From: an uncultured archaeon
GTDB lineage: Archaea; Thermoproteota; Nitrososphaeria; Nitrososphaerales; Gagatemarchaeaceae
Reading direction: 5' to 3'
Length of the DNA: 64,000 nt
Assembly (NCBI GenBank): GCA_963817525.1
Contig: CAWFOU010000007.1
Location: 864,001 to 928,000 of the forward strand
Shown here: one piece after another, positions 25,955-37,284 of the stretch
How positions within the stretch are numbered: the first letter of the stretch is position 1
Layout of the letters: every line of letters starts with the position of its first letter
The notes under the pieces: generated by a model
Database searches by the model: none
The model's input: only the letters and a program-made list of their open reading frames with translations
What the model was told of the DNA's origin: nothing
Made by a program: the position numbers and the translations under genes

Positions 25955-27817
25955 TGTCCAAGCGAGTGACGGAACCATTAGTGGTTCTCGCCGGAATAGC
26001 CCTCTTCGTCTTCGGTCTCGCACTGAGAAACGGGGTGTTTCCATCGCTGACGTCCGGAGTGTATGGAAATCTCTTCGGCGTCTCCGTCGTTTCGGTCGGC
26101 GTAGGCATAGTAACCGTCGGAATAGTAGACGCAGTAACTTTCCTAGCGTCTGGGAAATTTAGGCCGGAATCTCGCGGCTTCATGGAAAAGGTATCGCCAC
26201 CCAGCTCGATAGCAAGGCCTTTGCTCAATTCGATGTCCGGCGAAGTCTCCTCGAAAATGTCTGCGGCGGGGCTCGTAGTCAACCCACTCCTCTACGTCAC
26301 TCCGTACGTCACGTTCGCAATAATTTCGCTTACCATCACAATCCCGGTATCCTTGTTTCTCTTCCTGATGTTCCGGTTCCCACTTTTCCTCGTCATCAAC
26401 GTCTTGCCTGTGCTGATTCTCATCGCACCCACGGTCACGGTGAGCGATAGGCTTGGGAAGACAACCGCTGGTGTCGAGAGCGAGCTTCCGTACCTCGCTC
26501 TATTTGCGGCAGTGCTTCAATCCTCAGGAATTTCCCTCTATCATACGTTGGTGAAGATGAGAGAAACCGGTAAGTTCACCTGGATAGCTCTAGAGGCCGC
26601 ACTCATAGAAAAGGAGAACGTCTTCTTCGGCAAGACTGAGGCCCAAGCAATTCAGGAGCGAGCCAGGATTCATCCTAGTCAGAAATTCAAGCAATACCTT
26701 CAGGGCTACGCTTCGACCATAACGAGCGGTGGTGACGTGTCCAGATACCTCGAAGACAAGGTGAACCAGTTCTTGGGATGGAGCGAATTCAACTGGAAGA
26801 AGTATGCAAACGACAGCTCGGACATTGGCGAGGCCGTGATCTCGATCTTCTTCGTGCTGCCGATGATAATCCTCACAATGTCGTTCATCTATCCGAACGC
26901 TACCTTGAACATCGTTGAACTGATGGTCTTCCTCATCCTTCCGATGCTGAGCGGCGCGGCGTACTTCCTGATCGACAAGTCCCAACCTAAGAGTCACAAC
27001 ACCATCACCGTCAATCATTCGACTAGCCTTGGTGCTTTCTGTTGCGTCTGGGGTCTTTACAGCACTGCTCTTCCCAACGTTGTATTGGTTGGTCGTCGCC
27101 ACTTCCGTCGGCGTCTTCGCGTTCTTCGTCGGACGTTCTTCATTCACGCAGTTGCACGACATAAAGAAGATCGAGGAAGACTTGCCTCAGTTTCTCAGAG
27201 ACCTTACCGAGTACAAGAAGATAGGCTACGACATCACGAAGGCTATTCAGAAGCTTGCTGAAGAAGGCAACTATTCGAAGCAGTTTACTACCCTGATTCA
27301 GGACGTGAGCAAGCAGCTCAGCCTGGGACTGCGCATGAAGGAGGTCATAATCAAGACAAGGTCGTGGCTAACCGGCATGATGTTTGACCTGACCGCTGAC
27401 ATTGTCGAATCTGGAGGCGGAACACCGGAACTGCTCGAGATGGTCACAGACTTCACGCAGAGAATCGAGACGGTCAAGAAGGAGACGAAGTCGAACATGC
27501 GACTGTATGAGATTCTCTCAGTGGCAACACCCGTTGGTCTAACGGTGATGATCGTCCTGATTCAATTCATGCTCCAGCAGTTCGGCGGAATTGTCAGCTC
27601 AGGAGTTCATACGGGCTTCCTCAGCGAGTTCTCAAGTCCGTCATCTCAGTTCTTGGACTTGACAAAGCTTCTCATCATAGAGGCTTCGGTGGCGACTGCT
27701 TTCCTAGCGAGTAAGGCGATCGACTTCACCAACTACAGCACCTACCGGGTCTTCATGGTAGTCGTTCTCGTTGTGGCCGCGTTCGGTCTCGTGCAACTGG
27801 TGACACCAATATTCTAG
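25954..27817 (+). CDS. TadC/FlaJ-like pilus platform membrane protein (indel near 27030)
   Basis: Multiple TM helices with two GspF-like halves (ESELPY...SSG; EEDLPQFLRDLTE...ESGG) split over two frames. Confidence 0.85.
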
Positions 27818-27947
27818 CCCGAGCAGACGGAAGAGCATAGGTGAGAGCAGTTGAGCGACGACTCTCGTAAAGCGAGTGCACGCCAAGGGGGGAAAGGATA
27901 ACTAGTCACGCCAGGTTCATCGGCCAGGTAGAAGGTCTTAGCAGAGC

Positions 27948-29120
27948 ATGGCTTTGCAGTCTCCCGAGCAGTTCTCCCGCGAATATTTTGATTGGTCTGA
28001 GGAGGAGTTCGCGCAAAGGTTCGTAGCGAAGATCTCCGCGGGGCGGCTCAAGCAGAACGAGTCATACATCGACCTGAAGTTGGAGAAAAAGTCCTCCACG
28101 CAGAAGGTGAAGGCGGCCTACAAGGACGCGGTCAACCTCCCGAGCCTCGTGAAGCTGCTCCCCGGGCTCGCCTCCAACCCGACCCCTGCCGATTACGTCA
28201 AATCCGTCAACGGCTTCTTCAAGGACAACAAGGGCGGCGACCTTTTCCATTGGTGGAGGAAGATGAGGGCAGGGACCAAGACCCCGCTCTTCGGCTCGGC
28301 CGACATCATCAACGTCTGCAACCTAAAGTGCGTCCACTGCTACTGGTGGACCAACAGGCAGCCGACGGCAGGTGAGCTGACCCCCGAGCAGTGGAGGGTC
28401 GTCATCCGAAACTCCTTCAAGAAGATGAGGATAGCGAACGTCACGGTCGTCGGCGGCGAGCCGATGCTGAGGAAGGACGTCGTCCAGGTCTTCTCGGAGG
28501 AGATGAGGAACAGGATGAGCGTGGTCACGAACGGCACTCACCCGATGATACACATCAACGGGCTCTACTTCGTGTCCGTCGACGGGACGGAGGAGACCCA
28601 CAACCGCATCCGCGGCCCGAACACATACGCAAAGATGAAGACGAACATCAAGAACTTCGTCGAGACGGGAGGCCACGTCGACGCCAACATGACCTTGAAC
28701 ACACTGAACTACAAGACCGTGATAGACGTCCTTCGCGAGTGGGACGACATCGTGGGTAGGATAAGCATCCAGTTCCACACGCCCTTCATCGACAACGACC
28801 CGCTGTGGCTCCCCTTCGGAGAGGAGAGGGACAAGACCATCGACAGCATCATGGAGTACAGCAGCAAGGAGAACAGGCACTTCGTGGTGAACTCGAAGGA
28901 GCAGTTCGACCTCATGCGCGGCAACTGGGGGTCCATGTGCCCCAACTGGATGATTCTGCCACTGGACTATCGGGGCAACATCAAGACGCCGTGTTGCATG
29001 GGGAGCGCAAACGAAGCCGCGCTGCAGCCGCACTGCGACCAGTGCGGGCTCGCGCCCTACTCGGGCATCCTCGCAGGGCTCTTCCCGACAGAGCAAGCGC
29101 AAGTCCTGCGGAATAGTTGA
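27948..29120 (+). CDS. Radical SAM protein with Cys-rich (SPASM/twitch-like) C-terminus
   Basis: CNLKCVHC, GGEP, TNGT, SVDG; C-terminal CPNW...PCC...CDQC. Confidence 0.88.
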   Translation: MALQSPEQFSREYFDWSEEEFAQRFVAKISAGRLKQNESYIDLKLEKKSSTQKVKAAYKDAVNLPSLVKLLPGLASNPTPADYVKSVNGFFKDNKGGDLFHWWRKMRAGTKTPLFGSADIINVCNLKCVHCYWWTNRQPTAGELTPEQWRVVIRNSFKKMRIANVTVVGGEPMLRKDVVQVFSEEMRNRMSVVTNGTHPMIHINGLYFVSVDGTEETHNRIRGPNTYAKMKTNIKNFVETGGHVDANMTLNTLNYKTVIDVLREWDDIVGRISIQFHTPFIDNDPLWLPFGEERDKTIDSIMEYSSKENRHFVVNSKEQFDLMRGNWGSMCPNWMILPLDYRGNIKTPCCMGSANEAALQPHCDQCGLAPYSGILAGLFPTEQAQVLRNS

Positions 29121-29162
29121 GCGGCTGCAATCGCCGTAATTCCCAATGCCAAACAACCACCC

Positions 29163-29172
29163 TTAAATATAA
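29163..29172 (+). promoter_or_regulatory. TATA box of the ilvB-leu operon
   Basis: TTAAATATAA; the expected TSS at about 29193 coincides with the leader-peptide ATG. Confidence 0.7.
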
Positions 29173-29193
29173 GTGAGGGTCAGAAGGGGTTTA

Positions 29194-29277
29194 ATGCAAC
29201 GCATCAGCACGGTCGGTTCGAGTCCAGCATGCTTTTCGCTCGACAATATCACGGTTGCGTTGTTAGTTTTAGTCTAG
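29194..29277 (+). CDS. Putative ilv/leu leader peptide (27 aa)
   Basis: MQRISTVGSSPACFSLDNITVALLVLV*; ends ATC ACG GTT GCG TTG TTA GTT TTA GTC TAG; followed by a GCCTCGC/GCGAGGC hairpin (29279-29309). Confidence 0.7.
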   Translation: MQRISTVGSSPACFSLDNITVALLVLV

Positions 29278-29344
29278 AGCCTCGCTCCGGGGTTTCGCGC
29301 ATGCGAGGCATTGGTTACGGTTTCAATATTGGTGAATCCATAGA

Positions 29345-31069
29345 ATGACAGAAAAGATGTCGGGCGCACGTGCCACAGTGGAGGCTCTCGAGCGGGAGAA
29401 GGTAGAGTACATCTTCGGGATGCCGGGCGGCGCGAACCTCCCGCTCTACGACGCCCTATGGGATTCCAAGATCAAGCACGTCCTCGTCCGGCACGAGCAG
29501 CTGGCGGCCCACATGGCGGACGCCTATGGCAGGGTCTCGAGAAAGGCGGGGGTGTGCTCCGCCACTTCCGGGCCTGGCGCGACCAACCTGATAACGGGGA
29601 TAGCCACCGCCTACGCCGATTCCTCCCCGGTGGTGGCGATTACGGGCCAGGTACCGAAGGCGATGACGGGCAGGAACGCCTTCCAGGAGACCGACATCAT
29701 CGGCATCGCCACGCCCGTGACAAAGTACACGCTGCAGCCGCTCTCTGCGCAGGAGGTCCCGTTCGCGGTCAAGGAGGCGTTCTACCTCGCGACCACGGGC
29801 AGGCCTGGCCCCGTGCTCCTGGACCTCCCCAAGGACGTGCAGCAGGAGGAGGCGGAGATGACCTTCCCGGACAGCGTCACCGTGAGGGCTTACAGGCCGA
29901 GTGCGCCCGTCGACGCCCAGGACGTCGAGCGCGCGGCCGCCATGATACTAAAGGCCGAGAGGCCGATATTCTGGGGAGGCGGAGGGGTGAGGATCGCAGA
30001 CGCCGCGCAGCCGTTCGCGGCCCTCGCGGAGCTGCTGATGGCGCCGGTCATCACGACGCTCCAGGGGAAGGGAGACTTCCCGGAGGACCATCCTCTCTCG
30101 CTCGGCCCCATCGGGATGCACGGCCGAGCCGAGGCCAACAAGCTGGTCTCCGAGTGCGACCTGCTCGTCGCGGTCGGCGTCAGGTTCTCGGACAGGTCCA
30201 CGGGGAACTTCGGGGAGTTCGCCCCGGGCGCGAAGATAATCCACATCGACGCGGACCCCACCGAGTTCAACAAGAACAGGGCCGTCGACCTCTCGATACT
30301 GGGAGACGCCAACGTGGTCCTCGGGATGCTCTTCGACGCGGTCGCGAAGAAGATAGCAAAGAGCAAGGACCCGACCAACAACCCGTGGCTCAAGCGGGTC
30401 AACGCGGTCCGAGAGGAGATGAAGGGCATCCCCGCCTACAAGGACTCGTACGCGGACCTTTCGGGCCCGAAGATCGTCAAGAGGCTCCGCGACATCCTCC
30501 CGCCGGAGGCGATACTCACCACGGGGGTCGGAAGGCACCAGATGTGGTGCGAGATCCACTACAAGGTCCTCAGGCCGAGGACTTGGATAACCTCGACCGG
30601 GCTGGGGACGATGGGCTTCGGCCTTCCCGCGGCCGTGGGGGCCAGGTTCGCCAACCCGAACGTGCCGGTGGTGGACTTCGACGGCGACGGCAGCTTCGTC
30701 ATGACCGAGCAGGCCCTGGCGACAGCGGTCGAGGAGAGGCTCCCGATAATCTCGGTGATCCTCAACGACAGGAGCCTCGGGATGGTCGAGCAGTGGCAGA
30801 GGCTCATGTACAACAGGCGCTACATCGGCATCAAGTTCCCCAACACGCCCGACTTTGTGAAGCTCGCGGAGGCATACGGCGCACACGGAAAGACCGTGGG
30901 CTCGCTCGACGAGTTCGCAAAGGCGATGCGCGAGGGGCTGACAATCGAAGGGCCGACGGTCATCGAGGTGCCCGTCTCGCCTGAGGAGGACGTCTTCCCG
31001 TTCCTGCCCCCGGGCAAGGGGATCAAGGACACGGTCTACGGCTCCTCGAAGGAGATGGCCGTCTTTTGA
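29345..31069 (+). CDS. ilvB: Acetolactate synthase large subunit
   Basis: FGMPGGA, RHEQ, TSGPGATN, FQETD, GLGTMGFGLPAA, GDGSF; SD GGTGA at 29331. Confidence 0.97.
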   Translation: MTEKMSGARATVEALEREKVEYIFGMPGGANLPLYDALWDSKIKHVLVRHEQLAAHMADAYGRVSRKAGVCSATSGPGATNLITGIATAYADSSPVVAITGQVPKAMTGRNAFQETDIIGIATPVTKYTLQPLSAQEVPFAVKEAFYLATTGRPGPVLLDLPKDVQQEEAEMTFPDSVTVRAYRPSAPVDAQDVERAAAMILKAERPIFWGGGGVRIADAAQPFAALAELLMAPVITTLQGKGDFPEDHPLSLGPIGMHGRAEANKLVSECDLLVAVGVRFSDRSTGNFGEFAPGAKIIHIDADPTEFNKNRAVDLSILGDANVVLGMLFDAVAKKIAKSKDPTNNPWLKRVNAVREEMKGIPAYKDSYADLSGPKIVKRLRDILPPEAILTTGVGRHQMWCEIHYKVLRPRTWITSTGLGTMGFGLPAAVGARFANPNVPVVDFDGDGSFVMTEQALATAVEERLPIISVILNDRSLGMVEQWQRLMYNRRYIGIKFPNTPDFVKLAEAYGAHGKTVGSLDEFAKAMREGLTIEGPTVIEVPVSPEEDVFPFLPPGKGIKDTVYGSSKEMAVF

Positions 31070-31551
31070 CCAGGACGTCGAAGGTCCTCTCGACCCTCGT
31101 GGAGAACAAGCCCGGGACGCTCTTCAGGGTCATCCACCTGGTGAGGCTCATGCGCCTCAACATCGAGGGGCTCACCCTCGGAGTGACCAACGGCGGCGCA
31201 GACTGCAGGATGACGATGACGCTGAGCGGGGACGACGCCGCCGTGGAGCACGTGGCGAAGCAGCTCATGAAGGTCATAGACATCCTCGAGGCTCACACCT
31301 ACGGGCCGGAGGAGGTCACTGCGAGGGAGCTGGCCCTGGTGAAGATCAACACGGACAAGATCTCCGTGGCCGAGATACAGAGGAACACGGCCTGCCGGAT
31401 AGTCGACTCCTCCAAGCACTCCGTCGTGGCCGAGATAGTCGGCTCGGCGAAGCAGATCGACGAGTTCGTGGAGAGGCTCGGAGAGTCCAACGTCCTCGAC
31501 ATCGCCAGGACCGGTGTCGCGGCGCTCCCGAAGGAGACGACGTCGCGATGA
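31066..31551 (+). CDS. ilvN: Acetolactate synthase regulatory subunit
   Basis: ACT domain VENKPGTL...NIE; RELALVK; ARTG. Confidence 0.9.
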   Translation: MTRTSKVLSTLVENKPGTLFRVIHLVRLMRLNIEGLTLGVTNGGADCRMTMTLSGDDAAVEHVAKQLMKVIDILEAHTYGPEEVTARELALVKINTDKISVAEIQRNTACRIVDSSKHSVVAEIVGSAKQIDEFVERLGESNVLDIARTGVAALPKETTSR

Positions 31552-33107
31552 CCGAGAGGATAATCCGCGTCCTCGACACCACGCTCCGGGACGGGGAGCA
31601 GACGCCCGGGGTATCGCTCACTCCTGACGAGAAGCTGGAGATAGCGGTGGCGCTGGACAGGCTAGGGGTCGATGTCATCGAGGCGGGCTTCCCGATCACC
31701 TCCAAGGGCGAGCAGGAAGGGGTCAGAAGGATCGCGAGGGCGGGCCTCAAAGCCGAGATATCGGGGCTCGCGAGGGCGGACAAGGTCGACATCGACACGG
31801 CGGTCAACTGCGGCGTGAAGGGAGTCCACGTCTTCCTAGGCTCGTCGGACATCCACCTCCAGCACAAGCTCCACATGACGAGGGAGCAGATGGTGAAGCA
31901 GTCGGCCGACATGGTGAGGTACGCGAAGAGCTTCGGGGTCAAAGTCGAGTTCTCGGCCGAGGACGCGACGCGGACCGAGATCCCGTTCTTCAAGGAGGTC
32001 GTCAAGGCCGTCACCGAAGCTGGGATAGACCGCTTCGACATCCCGGACACCGTGGGGATCGCGACGCCCCAGAAGATGGCGGAGTACGTGCAGGCGGCGC
32101 GCTCGGTCTCCGACGTGATGATCAGCGTCCACTGCCACAACGACTATGGGCTGGCGGTGGCGAACAGCCTGGCAGGCGTGGTCGCGGGAGCCGACCAGGC
32201 CCACCTCACCATCAACGGCATCGGCGAGAGGTCGGGGAACACCTCGCTCGAGGAGTTCGTGATGGGGTGCTTCAACCTCTACGCGCTGAGGACGAACGTC
32301 AACTACTCGCTGCTCTACGAGACCTCACGCCTCGTCTCGAGGCTGACGGGCGTCATCATACAGCCCAACAAGGCGATAATCGGGGACAACGCCTTCGGGC
32401 ACGAGTCGGGGATCCACACCGCCGGGATCCTCAGCAACCCCTCGACCTACGAGCCGTTCGACCCCTCGATGGTGGGGAGGACGAGGTGGCTCCAGGCGGG
32501 CAAGCACGCGGGTAGGCACGGCATCTCCTACCAGCTCCGCGGGATGGGGCTGAAGCCGAAGGAGGACAGCCTCAGGCTGATAGTCGAGAGGGTCAAGGAG
32601 ATGGGCGACGAGGGCCGCACGATAACCGACAGCGACCTCTACCAGCTCGCCATCCAGATCATGGGCGGAGGCAAGGCGGAGTCCGCCGACATCGTCGAGC
32701 TTGAGGGGCTTGAGGTGGTCACAGGGATAAAGCGCCTCCCGAGCGCGACGGTCAAGCTCCTGGTCAGGGGGCAGCTCCACGAGGCGACGGACGTCGGCTC
32801 GGGGCCTGTGGACGCTGCGGTCAACGCCATCCAGAAGATCTTCAGCACCATCGACGTCATCAAGCTCAAGGAGTACAGGCTAGAGGCGCTCACGGGCGAC
32901 TCCCAGGCCGTGGCCGACGTCTCGGTAAAGGTGGAGGACAGCGCGGGCCTCGCGGCCTCCGGAAGGGGGATGAAGAGGGACATCGTCGTCGCGAGCGTGG
33001 AGGCCATAGTGAGCGGGATCAACGCGCTCATGGCGAAGAAGCTCCAGTCCCAACCCTCGACCACCCTGGCTCCCCACGGAGAGCCTTCGGCGATGGAAGG
33101 GGTCTAG
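31548..33107 (+). CDS. leuA: 2-isopropylmalate synthase (citramalate synthase not excluded)
   Basis: [30 protein letters not shown], regulatory GPVDA. Confidence 0.9.
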
Positions 33108-33109
33108 GC

Positions 33110-34438
33110 ATGACCGGCGCGACGATAACGGAGAAGATAGTCTCCCGTGCGATGGGGAGGAAGGCGAAGGCGGGCGACGTGATAGAGGCCCTCCCGATAG
33201 ACAAGCTCTACTTCAACGAGGTCATCGGGCCCCCGGCCATCCTCAACTTCGAGAAGGACTTCGAGGACGTCTATACAGAGTCTGGGAAGAAGATGCAGGT
33301 CTTCAACCCCTCGCGCATAGCGTTCATGCCGGACCACACGGTCCCCTCGTGCTCCATCAAGGTCAGCCAGGGCATACGCCTGATGGCGGACTTTGCAAAG
33401 GACCAGGGAATCGCCATGTACAAGGAGGGGGACGGCATCGAACACACCATCGCCTCCGAGGAGGCCTTCGTCCTCCCGGGGGAGATAGCGGTGGCCACGG
33501 ACTCGCACACGTGCACCCAGGGGGCGCTCGGCGCGCTCGCGTTCGGCATAGGGACGACCGAGGGCGAGAACCTCCTCGCGACCGGCGAGCTCTACTCCTT
33601 CACGGTCCCGGAGACCATCAAGTTCAAGGTGAGCGGCAAGTTCCAGAGGGGGGTCTACGCCAAGGACCTCGTCCTCCACGTACTAGGGATGATGGGGGAG
33701 GGCGGGGCCTCCAAGCGGGTCGCGGAGTACACCGGCCCGACCATCGATTCCCTCGACATGGAGGGAAGGTTCACCATCTGCAACCTCTCGGTCGAGATGA
33801 GCTCGCGGACCGCGATAATCAACCCGGACGCCAAGACGCTCGCCTACGTCAACGAGGCGCTCTCCCGGAGGAAGATGACGATGACCGACGAGATGCAAGG
33901 GATGATAGCGAGGAGCGACCCCGACGCCACCTACTCGAGGACGGTCGAGGTCGACGCCTCCGTCATCGAGCCCACCGTCTCGCTCCCCCACTCTCCGGCG
34001 AACGCAAAGCCCGTGAGCCAGGTGAGCGACCCCATCAGCTCGGTCTTCCTCGGCTCGTGCGCCAACGCCCGCGAGGCCGACCTGATAATCGCGGCCAAGA
34101 TACTGAAGGGAAGGAAGGTTAGCCCGGACACCAACCTCCTGGTCATCCCGGCAAGCAGGCGGGTCTACAACTGGGCGATGGACAACGGCCTCCTCAAGAT
34201 ATTCGCCGACGCCGGCGCCAACATCGAGTCCTCCAACTGCGGCCCCTGCTTCGGGAAGCACATGGGGATACTCGGACCCGGCGACAGGTGCCTGAGCACG
34301 AGCAACCGCAACTACAAGGGCAGGATGGGCTCCCCGGAGGCGTTCATCTACCTCGGCTCCCCCGCCTTGGCCGCCGCCACGGCGATCGAGGGGAGGATAG
34401 CCGACCCCAGGAAGTACCTCCCCGCCGGAGAGAACTAG
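33110..34438 (+). CDS. leuC: 3-isopropylmalate dehydratase large subunit
   Basis: DSHT, GSCAN, CGPCFG, STSNRNYKGRMG. Confidence 0.93.
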   Translation: MTGATITEKIVSRAMGRKAKAGDVIEALPIDKLYFNEVIGPPAILNFEKDFEDVYTESGKKMQVFNPSRIAFMPDHTVPSCSIKVSQGIRLMADFAKDQGIAMYKEGDGIEHTIASEEAFVLPGEIAVATDSHTCTQGALGALAFGIGTTEGENLLATGELYSFTVPETIKFKVSGKFQRGVYAKDLVLHVLGMMGEGGASKRVAEYTGPTIDSLDMEGRFTICNLSVEMSSRTAIINPDAKTLAYVNEALSRRKMTMTDEMQGMIARSDPDATYSRTVEVDASVIEPTVSLPHSPANAKPVSQVSDPISSVFLGSCANAREADLIIAAKILKGRKVSPDTNLLVIPASRRVYNWAMDNGLLKIFADAGANIESSNCGPCFGKHMGILGPGDRCLSTSNRNYKGRMGSPEAFIYLGSPALAAATAIEGRIADPRKYLPAGEN

Positions 34439-34439
34439 C

Positions 34440-34976
34440 ATGCAGATCCGGGGAAAAGTCGCAAAGAAGTTCGGGGAAGACATCAACACCGACTACATCA
34501 TCCCCGCCTACCTCCTGCAGGAGAGCTGGGACAAGCAGTTCTTCGCTGACCACGCCTTCGAGGGCTACGACCCCACGTTCGGCCCGGCGTGCAGGGCGAA
34601 CAAGCACAGCATCGTGGTCGCCGCCAACAACTTCGGCTGCGGCAGCTCGAGGGAGCAGGCGGTCTACTCGATAAAGTACAACAACGTGGTCGCGGTGGTC
34701 GCCCAGAGCTTCCCCGACATATTCTTCCGCAACTGCCTGAACAACGGGCTGCTCCCCATCCAGGTGAGCGACACGAGCAAGATCTTCCTCGGGGACGAGC
34801 TCGAGGTGGACCTCCAGTCACGCAGGCTTACGGACATCACTACCGCGCTCCACTACCCGATACTAGCCACCGACGAGGCGATAGAGGCCATGAAGAGGGG
34901 CGGGTCACTCGGCTTCGTCAGGGATAGGCTCCGGCAGAAGCTAAAAGCACAGCCGATGAAGGCCTCGTCCCAGTAG
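34440..34976 (+). CDS. leuD: 3-isopropylmalate dehydratase small subunit
   Basis: INTDYIIP, NFGCGSSRE, IFFRN. Confidence 0.93.
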   Translation: MQIRGKVAKKFGEDINTDYIIPAYLLQESWDKQFFADHAFEGYDPTFGPACRANKHSIVVAANNFGCGSSREQAVYSIKYNNVVAVVAQSFPDIFFRNCLNNGLLPIQVSDTSKIFLGDELEVDLQSRRLTDITTALHYPILATDEAIEAMKRGGSLGFVRDRLRQKLKAQPMKASSQ

Positions 34977-34980
34977 ACGC

Positions 34981-36016
<1,036 letters not shown>

Positions 36017-36100: not shown

Positions 36101-37284
36101 TCATGCTGTTCCACTCTGGGTGGTGAGCGCCTTGGTGAGCAGGGCGAGCCACTTCTGCTCTCCCTGAACCCCGATTCCCGCCGCGTCTGCGGGGGTCTGG
36201 CCTTCTAAGGCCTCATGGGGCTTTACGAAGTTGTAGTGAATCCTTTGGCCTTCCGCGAGGGTTGTCTTCATGGACTTCCATCCCCTCTGAACCTTGATTG
36301 CTCCCGAAGTGTGCCGTTCATCCTCTCCACTCGGTTGTTGTTGGCGTGAGGCTTGCCGACTCCCATCCTCGCCACTAACTCAGGCTTCGCGGTCTCCCCT
36401 TCCCAATAGCTCAAGGCCTGTGGGTAGGCGCTCAGGCCGTCTGCGAATATCTTCTCAGGCTCGCTCCCGTTGGCGTTCCTTCGGGCCTCGTTGAAGACGG
36501 CGACCGCGCCGTTCACGTTCCTGTGCTGGGAGAGGCGAGACGCGAGCAGGAACCGCGTCTTCCTGTCCATCACGTTCCAGAGGTAGGCCATGCCCTTCAT
36601 CGTCTTCCGCTCCATCCCGCCCTTGGCTGTCTCTCCGCCCCTCATCTTCACGAAGACCTCATCCGCCTGCCATGTCTCGGAAAGCTGTGGAGTGAGGCTG
36701 TTCACATACTCGGAAATCTTCGGCACGAAGGTTTCAATCCACCGATAGATTGAGGTCGCGCCCATCTCCGTCCCGAATTGGCTGTTCACCGTGCGGGCAA
36801 TCTTGCGAAGGCTCATGCCTGAAAAGTAGAGGTCGAGGGTGAGGCTCACCACTTCGGGTGTGTATCTCGACCCCCTGATTAGGGCCTGCTCTCTGAACCT
36901 GTGGCCGCAATCGTTGCACTTGAAGGCCTGCTTGCCGTGCGAGCTACCGAACCTTATCACTCGGATTGAGCCGCACTTGCCGCATTGGATTGCGTCGTCA
37001 GAGAAGACCTTCGGCTTTGGAGCCTGCTTGATTTCGACCCTCGCGGCAATCCAGAGTTTGACCGCGAGCGCATGCTTGCAGGCCTCTATCTGGTCTGCTC
37101 GGTTCTCAAAGTCTGGGCATGAGCAGACCCACGATGTTCCGAGTAGTCTGACTTCGTAGGTTCGCCCTTCATTGCTTTGGGATGGGACGCTGAAAGACCC
37201 GTCTGCGTTCTCCGCTATTCTGTTCTCCTCACAGATTGCGAGCGCCTTCATCTTCCGAGATTCCACCGCGTTTGTTGGGGACAT
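36101..37284 (-). CDS. DDE transposase (IS6-like) with N-terminal SWIM and zinc-ribbon domains (indel near 36300)
   Basis: CSCPDF...CKH, CGKC...CNDC, WQADE, FADG, NNRVERMN; second frame YNFVKPH...GQTPA to TGA 36101. Confidence 0.88.

Follow-up and report, generated by a model that had tools for sequence, protein, structure and literature searches.

The window analysed here, a stretch of 64,000 nucleotides of DNA from an uncultured soil archaeon of the order Nitrososphaerales, encodes a branched-chain amino acid (BCAA) operon at 29345-35976. All features described below lie on its forward strand. Pfam domains identify the genes as ilvB (29345-31069), ilvN (31066-31551), leuA (31548-33107), leuC (33110-34438), leuD (34440-34976) and leuB (34981-35976), and the ORFs abut or overlap. 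The ATG of ilvB is at 29345 and its Shine-Dalgarno (SD) sequence, GGTGA, is at 29331-35.

Upstream of ilvB, a TATA box, TTAAATATAA (29163-29172), can be read 31 nt 5' of the ATG of a small ORF, uORF1 (29194-29277), which comprises 27 codons and a TAG stop at 29275-77 (MQRISTVGSSPACFSLDNITVALLVLV). The predicted peptide ends in VALLVLV. Codon usage marks out the run GTT GCG TTG TTA GTT TTA GTC (29254-29274), which extends up to the stop, as the putative control codons. The geometry of the TATA box suggests that the transcript starts at the uORF1 ATG or a few nucleotides from it, and thus that the mRNA is leaderless or nearly so. uORF1 is an unannotated small ORF. The TATA box, the uORF, the complementary segments and the ilvB SD were all found where an earlier note on this DNA had placed them.

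RNA data came from one metatranscriptome run (X1), available as contigs that carry neither transcript ends nor expression levels. A contig from a relative that is 90-95% alike covers 29215-29427, which is compatible with co-transcription of the leader and ilvB. No contig of this run is listed for 29154-29214, which proves nothing.

A uORF with an Ile/Leu/Val-rich end precedes ilvB in 16 of the 17 loci retrieved from the genus; the sequence of locus L011 breaks off at the end of its contig and does not allow a verdict. Outside the family, we compared 85 ilvB loci from 17 other families of Nitrososphaerales. A uORF with at least six Ile, Leu or Val among its last 10 residues was present at 58 of them, against 5.2 in shuffles, an approximately 11-fold excess across the order. 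With the stricter cut-off of seven of 10 residues, 44 of the 85 loci qualify, compared with 1.2 expected. The presence of uORF1 in front of ilvB is not due to chance, and this comparison of upstream regions, a check proposed in the earlier note, shows that the uORF and its Ile/Leu/Val enrichment are conserved. In other families of Thermoproteota, outside Nitrososphaerales, an Ile/Leu/Val-ended uORF was found before ilvB at 3 of 40 loci. A pattern scan of metagenomes returned mostly chance matches; among the 80 loci listed, six have the full hairpin, and these are five leaders (one identical to that of L002) and one unrelated sequence.

The promoter geometry is also conserved. Of 81 related leaders, 69 have a TATA-like 8-mer 22-40 nt 5' of an in-frame start, compared with 32 of 205 control anchors, and the modal offset is 31 nt. 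This agrees with the claim that the box sits at a distance typical of leaderless or near-leaderless transcripts. Between families, the leader peptides have unrelated N-terminal halves, and in their tails I, L and V replace one another. Reading of the peptide lists by eye indicates tails of 6-10 residues made up of I, L and V, in which F, M and W are infrequent. Hydrophobic runs this short, behind unrelated N-terminal halves, do not amount to the conserved membrane-spanning sequence of a functional small membrane protein.

Several codons in the uORF1 tail are rare in this genome (G000), as the earlier note had remarked for the window. Based on 1054 predicted genes, TTA accounts for 0.6% and TTG for 5.1% of Leu codons, and GTT for 3.2% of Val codons. 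Inspection of the sequences by eye indicates that nearly all leaders of the genus have TTA among their final four sense codons; two leaders (L039 and L041) have CTT at the end instead. Only 4 of 1818 small intergenic ATG-initiated ORFs of the genome have at least seven Ile, Leu or Val in their last nine residues. Other small ORFs with Ile/Leu/Val-rich windows in the genome resemble membrane peptides. One Leu-rich uORF, at C1:212.6 kb, was taken for a chance occurrence because its codons are common ones and it lacks a TATA box. We saw no convincing His, Thr, Phe or Trp leader in this genome, and none before trpE. An Rfam cmscan of positions 27000-31000, with E-values up to 10, returned four weak matches, none of which falls in the leader or belongs to a leader family.

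Folding of the leader with RNAalifold, using eight close relatives, predicts a 5' helix, P1, in which AUGCAAC (29194-29200, including the start codon) pairs with GUUGCGU (29254-29260) over the first control codons. All seven pairs are kept in all eight relatives, with one pair alternating between U-G and U-A. The earlier note had instead paired CAACGCA (29197-203) with its reverse complement TGCGTTG (29256-62). A 5' helix over the control codons is indeed conserved, but that register was off by 3 nt: 80% of cells pair in it, and its central pair is broken in four of eight sequences. Within the genus, the P1 motif CAACGC is kept in two different reading frames. Across families, a P1-type duplex occurs at p<=0.05 in 28 of 67 leaders, with compensatory pairs in family f7 and a 15-bp version over the Ile/Leu/Val codons in family f4. 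Inside P1 is a smaller hairpin, P1b (29218-29243), formed by UCGAGU (29218-23) and GCUCGA (29238-43); its arms are invariant in the eight close relatives and its loop is variable.

The second hairpin, P2 (29279-29309), starts 2 nt past the uORF1 stop and consists of GCCUCGC, a 17-nt loop and GCGAGGC (in the DNA, GCCTCGC at 29279-85 and GCGAGGC at 29303-09). An extension into the last codons of uORF1 is possible. The hairpin after the stop had been pointed out before, and its conservation is clear: the arms are invariant in close relatives and, in the order as a whole, 47 of 81 leaders have a hairpin at this position that is at least as stable as -12 kcal/mol, compared with 9.7 in shuffles. In 63 of the 81 leaders, the first base of P2 falls in the interval from 9 nt before to 5 nt after the last base of the stop; covarying pairs occur in families f4 and f11. 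Both P1 and P2 recur across leaders whose sequences differ. The only conserved block of the otherwise variable P2 loop is G-R-G-G-T, present in all eight close relatives and found in added relatives too. In the window, the block reads as an SD-like GGGGU (29289-29293), 7 nt 5' of an ATG at 29301.

That ATG, at the junction of the P2 loop and the P2 3' arm, opens a second small ORF, uORF2 (29301-29348), which has 15 codons and a TGA that overlaps the ilvB ATG (ATGA). The evidence for uORF2 comes from one subclade. Among 13 distinct close relatives, 12 keep it open, and its frame contains no internal stops, compared with six variable out-of-frame stops. By a crude frame count within this one subclade, its openness corresponds to a p of about 0.09. 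A permissive search for such an ORF in all families was not discriminating, as 56 of 63 loci have one. We therefore treat uORF2 as a weak candidate for a coupling ORF. Downstream of its start is P4 (29319-29339), a weak hairpin of six pairs that includes part of the ilvB SD; two of the six pairs have changed on both sides among the eight close relatives. A further pairing proposed earlier, between CAATAT (29244-49) and its reverse complement ATATTG (29326-31) beside the ilvB SD, is not conserved, with 67% of cells paired and the middle pair broken in six of seven sequences.

The earlier note had envisaged either termination or occlusion of the ilvB SD as the output. As a general mechanism, SD occlusion finds no support. 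When a ribosome was masked on the control codons in partition-function folding, predicted accessibility of the ilvB SD rose at 7 and fell at 5 of 36 loci, and the mean shifted from 0.35 to 0.39; for the leader of the window itself, the change was from 0.41 to 0.42-0.48. The control run did not pair with the ilvB initiation region more than a shuffled run did (0.148 vs 0.202). Some other lineages have a predicted direct pairing between control codons and the ilvB SD; the window's clade does not (pairing probability 0.03). In family f11, CCUCC within the uORF tail pairs with the ilvB AGGAGG, and this helix is retained in six of six leaders. A translational output is favoured by this f11 helix, by the open uORF2, by the covarying pairs of P4 and by the lack of a U-tract after P2 in the clade.

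What the sequences show is the layout of the leader, how widely it recurs and the rarity of its tail codons. Taken together, the leader is very probably a ribosome-read sensor of Ile, Leu and Val. We infer that uORF1 and uORF2 are translated, that ribosomes stall on the control codons, and each step of the output. uORF1 would serve as a cis-acting leader peptide, and a ribosome would load on the 5' end of the RNA while the leader is being transcribed, because the transcript appears to start at or near the uORF1 ATG. The last seven codons are described as Val/Leu codons, five of them rare, and the run reaches the stop. If charged tRNA for Leu, Val or Ile runs short, the ribosome would dwell on these codons, and its footprint would hold P1 open and unzip the base of P2. 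With a good supply, it would terminate and leave, and P1 and P2 would close.

How the position of this ribosome reaches ilvB is a more tentative matter, and we give a translational route in the window's clade, through P2, uORF2 and coupling to ilvB, somewhat less than an even chance. P2 would cage both the uORF2 start codon, in its 3' arm, and the SD-like GRGGU of its loop. Translation of uORF2 would run through P4, over the ilvB SD, and end on the ilvB ATG. Opening of P2 would thus activate ilvB, since uORF2 crosses P4 and stops on the ilvB ATG: with P2 open, uORF2 would be switched on and, by coupling, so would ilvB.

Alternatively, the same sensor may act on transcription, with P2 and U-rich bases stopping or pausing RNA polymerase unless a stalled ribosome occludes the hairpin, and with no antiterminator helix involved. 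We consider this possible, although less likely than the translational route. Coupling of transcription and translation in archaea is established, as is termination at oligo-U; hairpin-dependent termination by archaeal RNA polymerase is not known to be. P2 adjoins the stop codon in 63 of 81 leaders, as would be required for direct occlusion. The P2 of family f4 has A's on its flanks and a run of four or five U's behind it, as in GGGUUUUUGG, and U-runs also follow P2 in families f11, f16 and f17. However, P2 in the window is followed by AUUGGUUACGG, with no U-tract (the earlier note had observed that no long one follows), and a scan for bacterial-type terminators does not flag it. Across the order, at least four U's in the 8 nt after P2 were found in 16 of 63 leaders, and the median is 2-3. 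Terminator features at gene ends of this genome were uninformative as a guide (a T5 run follows 5% of convergent ends, with crude gene calls). In masked folds of 11 leaders, P2 persists except where the ribosome itself covers it, and the leaders have no alternative (antiterminator) helix in common. Moreover, a ribosome at the stop codon would cover the 5' arm of P2, and the fed state would thus need fast release. One feature of the clade does suit a decision made during transcription. P1 pairs with the 5'-terminal AUG, so reloading of uORF1 should be limited and only the pioneer ribosome would read the leader; a single co-transcriptional decision fits this better than steady-state translational sensing.

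The sensor could also alter the fate of the mRNA, with stalled or queued ribosomes, or P1 and P2 themselves, affecting 5'-to-3' decay, endonucleolytic cleavage or termination by FttA/aCPSF1. The two hairpins and the pairing of the 5' end could be barriers or entry sites, and neither the SD-occlusion nor the U-tract tests gave a general answer. Against this, we found no feature in the leader that is specific to such a route and, for factor-dependent termination, a stall is expected to leave more naked RNA, which would regulate in the wrong direction. We judge this route improbable.

A little less probable again is that no amino acid is sensed, and that the element is a functional hydrophobic peptide, or an RNA element for protein binding or processing whose reading frame is incidental. 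Ile/Leu/Val-rich ends are hydrophobic, codon runs of this kind are necessarily U-rich, and the genome's other small ORFs of similar composition look like membrane peptides. The leader tails, however, are short and poor in F, M and W, unlike those membrane-like ORFs; the N-terminal halves are unrelated between families, and the association with ilvB extends over 17 families. A purely RNA-based function needs neither a start at TATA distance nor a stop right after the run, but both recur. A chance ORF with no function is scarcely credible: the fold energy of the whole leader is ordinary (z = 0.75; 158 of 200 shuffles fold as well), but the counts of loci (58 vs 5.2 and 44 vs 1.2 expected) and of P2 hairpins (47 of 81 vs 9.7) are not.

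If a stalled ribosome does act by unzipping the hairpin next to the stop, Archaea would gain their first example of ribosome-mediated attenuation. A paper from 2014 on an archaeal transcriptome states that attenuators and riboswitches still lacked direct experimental support in this domain (PMC4247193), and our full-text literature search found no case of archaeal leader-peptide attenuation. The candidate is conserved and statistically solid, it occurs in an order that includes cultured ammonia oxidisers, and it makes testable whether archaeal ribosomes and RNA polymerase serve cis-regulatory sensing. The element also marks a class of unannotated small ORFs and offers a way into the regulation of BCAA synthesis in archaea of soil and sea that are abundant worldwide.

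Leader-peptide attenuation is textbook gene control in bacteria. Enterobacterial BCAA attenuators include the leader peptides of ivbL-ilvBN, ilvL-ilvGMEDA and leuL-leuABCD. Shared with these are a short leader ORF before a BCAA operon, with an Ile/Leu/Val run that includes rare codons, and, as proposed here, a choice of hairpin set by ribosome position. Unlike them, the archaeal leader has a TATA-box promoter and a probably leaderless or near-leaderless mRNA, and its control codons come at the end of the ORF, within the 3' arm of the first helix rather than in region 1. Of the features that define a trp/leu/ilv-type attenuator, the leader ORF rich in end-product codons is present; in place of a GC hairpin with a U-tract, the window has the hairpin alone, and the masked folds of 11 leaders show no mutually exclusive 2:3 antiterminator. 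In the clade there is no U-tract, and there is no Rfam match.

In the translational attenuation of cat-86/cmlA and ermC, a ribosome stalled near the end of the leader ORF melts a neighbouring hairpin in which the following ORF has its initiation region. The proposed action of P2 and uORF2 shares this melting of an adjacent hairpin by a stall. The stall in those systems depends on a drug and on the peptide, whereas here it would follow from aminoacyl-tRNA supply, and the initiation region that is freed would be that of a coupling mini-ORF rather than of the regulated gene itself.

Leaderless short ORFs also occur in mycobacteria, where a polycysteine ORF opens a biosynthetic operon as its first cistron and carries a run of product codons (Canestrari et al., bioRxiv 10.1101/834739). 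The archaeal leader likewise places a short ORF first, with a cognate codon run and a predicted leaderless start, and the f11 helix between control tail and ilvB SD is just of the type described there (10.1101/834739). The mycobacterial system is bacterial and concerns Cys rather than Ile, Leu or Val, and in the window's leader the control codons are separated from the ilvB SD by a hairpin and possibly by a second mini-ORF. The ilvBNC operon of Corynebacterium glutamicum is reported to have a leader before ilvB with several hairpins, a three-hairpin transcription attenuator (PMC11857589); the title of Morbach et al. (2000), as cited in PMC13158618, indicates that its ilvB leader peptide is formed without a ribosome-binding site. 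A leader peptide before ilvB and hairpins are shared with the archaeal locus, and the difference is that the C. glutamicum device is a bacterial transcription attenuator.

The layout is thus unlike the bacterial ones, in that the control codons adjoin the stop and the hairpin and a U-tract is not obligatory. We see an even chance that Nitrososphaerales, ammonia oxidisers included, use a leader of their own design, with a leaderless mRNA and rare control codons closing the ORF, in which a stall physically unzips the stop-adjacent hairpin instead of selecting a terminator or an antiterminator, with the uORF2 relay operating in the window's clade.

In the window, a TATA box (TTAAATATAA, 29163-29172) precedes uORF1, a small leader frame of 27 codons (MQRISTVGSSPACFSLDNITVALLVLV; ATG at 29194, TAG at 29275-29277). 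Next come P2, the hairpin at the stop codon (GCCTCGC/GCGAGGC, 29279-29309), the ilvB SD (GGTGA, 29331-29335) and the ilvB ATG at 29345, all on the forward strand. The genes ilvB, ilvN, leuA, leuC, leuD and leuB, assigned with Pfam, abut or overlap from 29345 to 35976, and the upstream neighbour, encoding a radical-SAM protein (27948-29120), is on the same strand. An earlier note had proposed an attenuator-like Ile/Leu/Val leader peptide here from the sequence alone, and the features it listed were all recovered at their positions. Right after the last gene of the operon is a gene for an IS240-type DDE transposase (36268-37284, reverse strand; Pfam DDE_Tnp_IS240, E = 3.6e-11).

The genome (2.82 Mb, 60.7% GC) strongly favours GC-ending codons. 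The uORF1 tail reads GTT GCG TTG TTA GTT TTA GTC, and usage in 1054 predicted genes bears out the claim that TTA (0.6% of Leu), TTG (5.1% of Leu) and GTT (3.2% of Val) are rare. At least seven Ile, Leu or Val among the last nine residues were found in 4 of 1818 small ATG-initiated ORFs from the upstream intergenic regions of this genome; the remaining small ORFs with Ile/Leu/Val-rich windows are membrane-peptide-like and rich in F, A and G. As a whole, the leader folds with an unremarkable minimum free energy (z = 0.75) and has no Rfam family match.

We did not identify a Trp leader before trpE, or other cognate-codon leaders, in this genome. Between a TATA-like box and trpE (C1:125440-125800) is an ORF of ~80 codons whose product would be small and hydrophobic, and a Trp-codon leader is absent. 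A Leu-rich ORF of 20-22 codons (..HRLLLKLQVLLL; C1:212620-212690), 83 nt before a gene that by eye resembles a 3-hydroxyisobutyrate-type dehydrogenase, was rejected as a leader; it is probably a chance occurrence because its codons are common and it lacks a TATA box.

The leader was found at 16 of the 17 ilvB loci examined in the genus, and the contig of the remaining one (L011) ends 86 nt upstream. IlvB is 80% identical to that of 'Candidatus Gagatemarchaeum stordalenia'. One genus subclade, which includes the window, has the 27-codon uORF (MQRIS...VALLVLV) and the other has uORFs of 21-22 codons, as MQSGNATTPEVLAKVALIVLL. At one locus of the window's clade (L007, genome G014) the tail is degenerate (VASTALV) and the start codon of uORF2, a second mini-ORF, is absent; still retained are P2, P1 (the helix between the 5' part of the uORF and the control codons) and the terminal TTA GTC stop. 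Leader control may have been lost or relaxed there.

The order Nitrososphaerales, to which the window's GC-rich archaeon from soil or peat belongs, also contains ammonia-oxidising archaea. An ilvB match (E<=1e-150) was present in 86 of the 111 genomes sampled, and the upstream DNA was then compared. The comparison beyond the genus covers 85 loci from 17 family codes, made up of 83 of 84 non-genus matches plus those of G026 and G040; a match cut by a contig end (G054) and a second identical copy in G111 were excluded. We counted as leaders uORFs of 12-50 codons that end within 130 nt of ilvB and have at least six Ile, Leu or Val in the last ten residues. Such uORFs occur at 58 of the 85 loci, compared with 5.2 expected from dinucleotide-shuffled versions of these regions, and with a threshold of at least seven at 44, against 1.2 expected. 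Conservation of an Ile/Leu/Val-rich uORF upstream of ilvB in relatives, which the earlier note had proposed as a check, therefore holds in both genus and order, and conservation of the leader far above chance level is confirmed.

At the threshold of six, the uORF is present at 6/8 loci in family f4, 2/2 in f6, 5/6 in f7, 8/8 in f11, 13/15 in f12, 3/3 in f13, 2/2 in f19 and 1/1 in each of f3, f5, f8, f16 and f17. It is found at 6/9 loci in f14 (only 2/9 with at least seven), where a genus with tiny genomes has no convincing leader upstream of ilvB, and at 0/1 in each of f2 and f10, with tail counts of five. Representation is weak in f9 (2/10) and f15 (6/15). In place of the leader, f9 has a conserved Met-rich uORF (MLYH..C.MMMMV..GLGLN...; L026, L096, L100, L132, L133), which ends near the ilvB SD in L026; a clear post-stop hairpin was not seen. 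One f15 genus (g17; L029, L112, L117, L121, L148) has uORFs of 24-25 codons, 30-35 nt before ilvB, whose final two or three codons are Leu (..RRFLL, ..KTKLLL, ..KDFLLL); they may be a Leu-only variant. In a sister genus within the window's own family (g20), none of 12 genomes (85-100% complete) has an ilvB match to this query at E<=1e-150; this genus may depend on external branched-chain amino acids as an auxotroph.

As a negative control, we examined 40 of 47 ilvB matches from other families of the phylum (four of f28, two of f24 and one of f33 were dropped before comparison). Three of the 40 reach the threshold of six, against 1.2 expected, and two of these, both in f37, have a leader and hairpin: at L168 and L171 a uORF (..APSLVIVVILK) is followed by a 10-bp hairpin (GCGCCUUAAG/CUUAAGGCGC) before ilvB. 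A leader is also present upstream of ilvB in a Marsarchaeota record (L052). It is absent at all four Thermoproteales ilvB loci inspected. Three Thermoproteales records (L059, L060, L086) share a conserved stretch ~110-150 nt upstream of ilvB that potentially encodes MSLLCPVQVTEGRI and is not Ile/Leu/Val-rich. Among bacterial ilvB loci matched by the same query (L084, L085 and L061, L077) are Ile-rich leader ORFs with hairpin and T-run terminators (Vicinamibacterales, Acidimicrobiia) and leaders that look T-box-like by eye (Dehalococcoidia).

Several features argue that the uORF is translated and is more than a U-rich RNA. The peptide N-termini are unrelated across families, I, L and V exchange freely within the tails, and the Ile/Leu/Val run reaches the stop codon within 0-1 codons. 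In 69 of 81 leaders, but at only 32 of 205 control anchors, an in-frame start is preceded at a distance of 22 to 40 nt by a TATA-like 8-mer; the modal offset is 31 nt, as in the window, and such spacing implies a 5' UTR length of ~0-9 nt. The CAACGC motif of P1 is retained in both genus subclades in different reading frames, and thus a constraint at the RNA level is superimposed on the coding one.

Helix P1 joins the uORF's 5' portion to the control codons, either where their run begins or along its full length. In the window's clade AUGCAAC (29194-29200) pairs with GUUGCGU (29254-29260), and all seven pairs are kept in 8/8 relatives. The pairing of these two regions had been anticipated, in a register 3 nt further on that is conserved in just 80% of cells. 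In f4, P1 is a 15-bp helix with the Leu/Val codon run as its 3' arm; f7 has compensatory changes at two pairs, and the Marsarchaeota locus has 11 + 6 bp. Compared with shuffles, the duplex reaches p<=0.05 in 28 and p<=0.01 in 15 of 67 leaders of testable length (mean z -1.63).

The post-stop hairpin of the earlier note is likewise present and has equivalents across the order. The start of P2 falls in a range from 9 nt before the stop-codon end to 5 nt past it, and the hairpin has a stability of -8 kcal/mol or better in 63/81 leaders and -12 kcal/mol or better in 47/81 (9.7 in shuffles; medians -12.5 and -6.4). Its sequence varies by family (GCCUCGC/GCGAGGC, CCUGCAG/CUGCAGG, GGGCUCA/UGAGCCC, CCCAGCG/CGCUGGG, GCCCACA/UGUGGGU), covarying pairs occur within f4 and f11, and the 3' arm is the G-richer in 18/20 lineage groups. 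Conservation of the proposed CAATAT/ATATTG pairing was not found. The long-range pairings of that note were thus partly wrong; its central idea, a leader peptide sensing branched-chain amino acids, is well supported by the sequence comparisons.

We consider it very probable that the leader serves as some form of Ile/Leu/Val sensor read by the ribosome. The layout is invariant: rare control codons reach the stop, where a stable hairpin begins, and therefore a ribosome on the last codons must open the base of P2. A ribosome with its A site on the last few codons would hold that base open, one on any control codon would hold P1 open, and termination and departure would let both close. Time spent at the end of uORF1 would thus be converted into time with P2 open. 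In the window's clade P1 pairs the 5'-terminal AUG, which would close uORF1 after the first ribosome; this fits a co-transcriptional decision and speaks against a steady-state translational sensor in that clade.

A translational output has slightly less than an even chance of being correct. In direct SD occlusion, UGUCCUCC in the f11 uORF tail would pair with the ilvB AGGAGG (kept 6/6), and like pairing is predicted in several other lineages; however, its probability is 0.03 in the window's clade, and overall the control run shows no more pairing with the initiation region than its shuffled version (0.148 vs 0.202). Folding with ribosome-masked segments gives no consistent support to the SD occlusion suggested by the earlier note, as predicted SD accessibility shifts in both directions (7 up, 5 down of 36).

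Alternatively, the window's clade may use a relay through uORF2 (29289-29348 with its SD-like element), for which the evidence is thin. The loop of P2 contains the SD-like GGGGU, and the 15-codon frame runs from ATG 29301, at the junction of loop and 3' arm, to a TGA overlapping the ilvB ATG. Across the clade G-R-G-G-U is kept in an otherwise variable loop, and the start codon (GTG in one relative) lies 7-8 nt beyond it, where the 3' arm begins. Among 13 distinct close relatives (nine from genomes, four new from a metagenome scan) the frame is open in 12, of which 10 end on the ilvB start (ATGA); the other two, L004 and L216, have a 1-nt deletion and terminate at a TAG that leaves 1 nt to the ilvB ATG. 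Internal stops number none in frame against six variable ones out of frame (p ~0.09, a crude count). The frame also runs through P4 (GGUUUCAAUAUUGGUGAAUCC, 29319-29339), a weak hairpin pairing part of the ilvB SD, with two covarying pairs among eight relatives. A permissive search for similar ORFs in all families, however, does not discriminate. Such a relay would resemble cat/erm-type translational attenuation, followed by translational coupling.

Intrinsic termination or pausing at P2 is a doubtful output. A textbook hairpin followed by U4-5 occurs in f4, but at least four U's in the 8 nt after P2 are found in only 16/63 leaders across the order; the window has no U-tract there, as had been remarked, and a terminator scan gives no flag. 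Some other output is improbable, a peptide or RNA element that does not sense amino acids is quite improbable, and chance is scarcely credible.

One public metatranscriptome run contains related sequence as contigs 90-95% alike, one of which spans 29215-29427 (the 3' part of the uORF, P2 and the ilvB start). This is compatible with co-transcription of leader and ilvB, the basis being assembled contigs that carry no transcript ends or levels and could include DNA carry-over. A search of the full-text literature, which leaves subscription journals mostly uncovered and may miss a report there, returned no description of an archaeal leader-peptide attenuator. According to a passage in a Thermococcus transcriptome study, attenuators and riboswitches in Archaea were, as of 2014, without direct experimental support (PMC4247193), and the accessible text of the uORF4u paper mentions archaea in only one general sentence (PMC10219788).

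The f11 helix is of the type outlined in a report on mycobacterial polycysteine ORFs, in which the control-codon run occludes the SD directly (10.1101/834739). Although the window's leader does not qualify as the classical terminator/antiterminator type, its proposed working principle resembles that of a bacterial leader-peptide attenuator.
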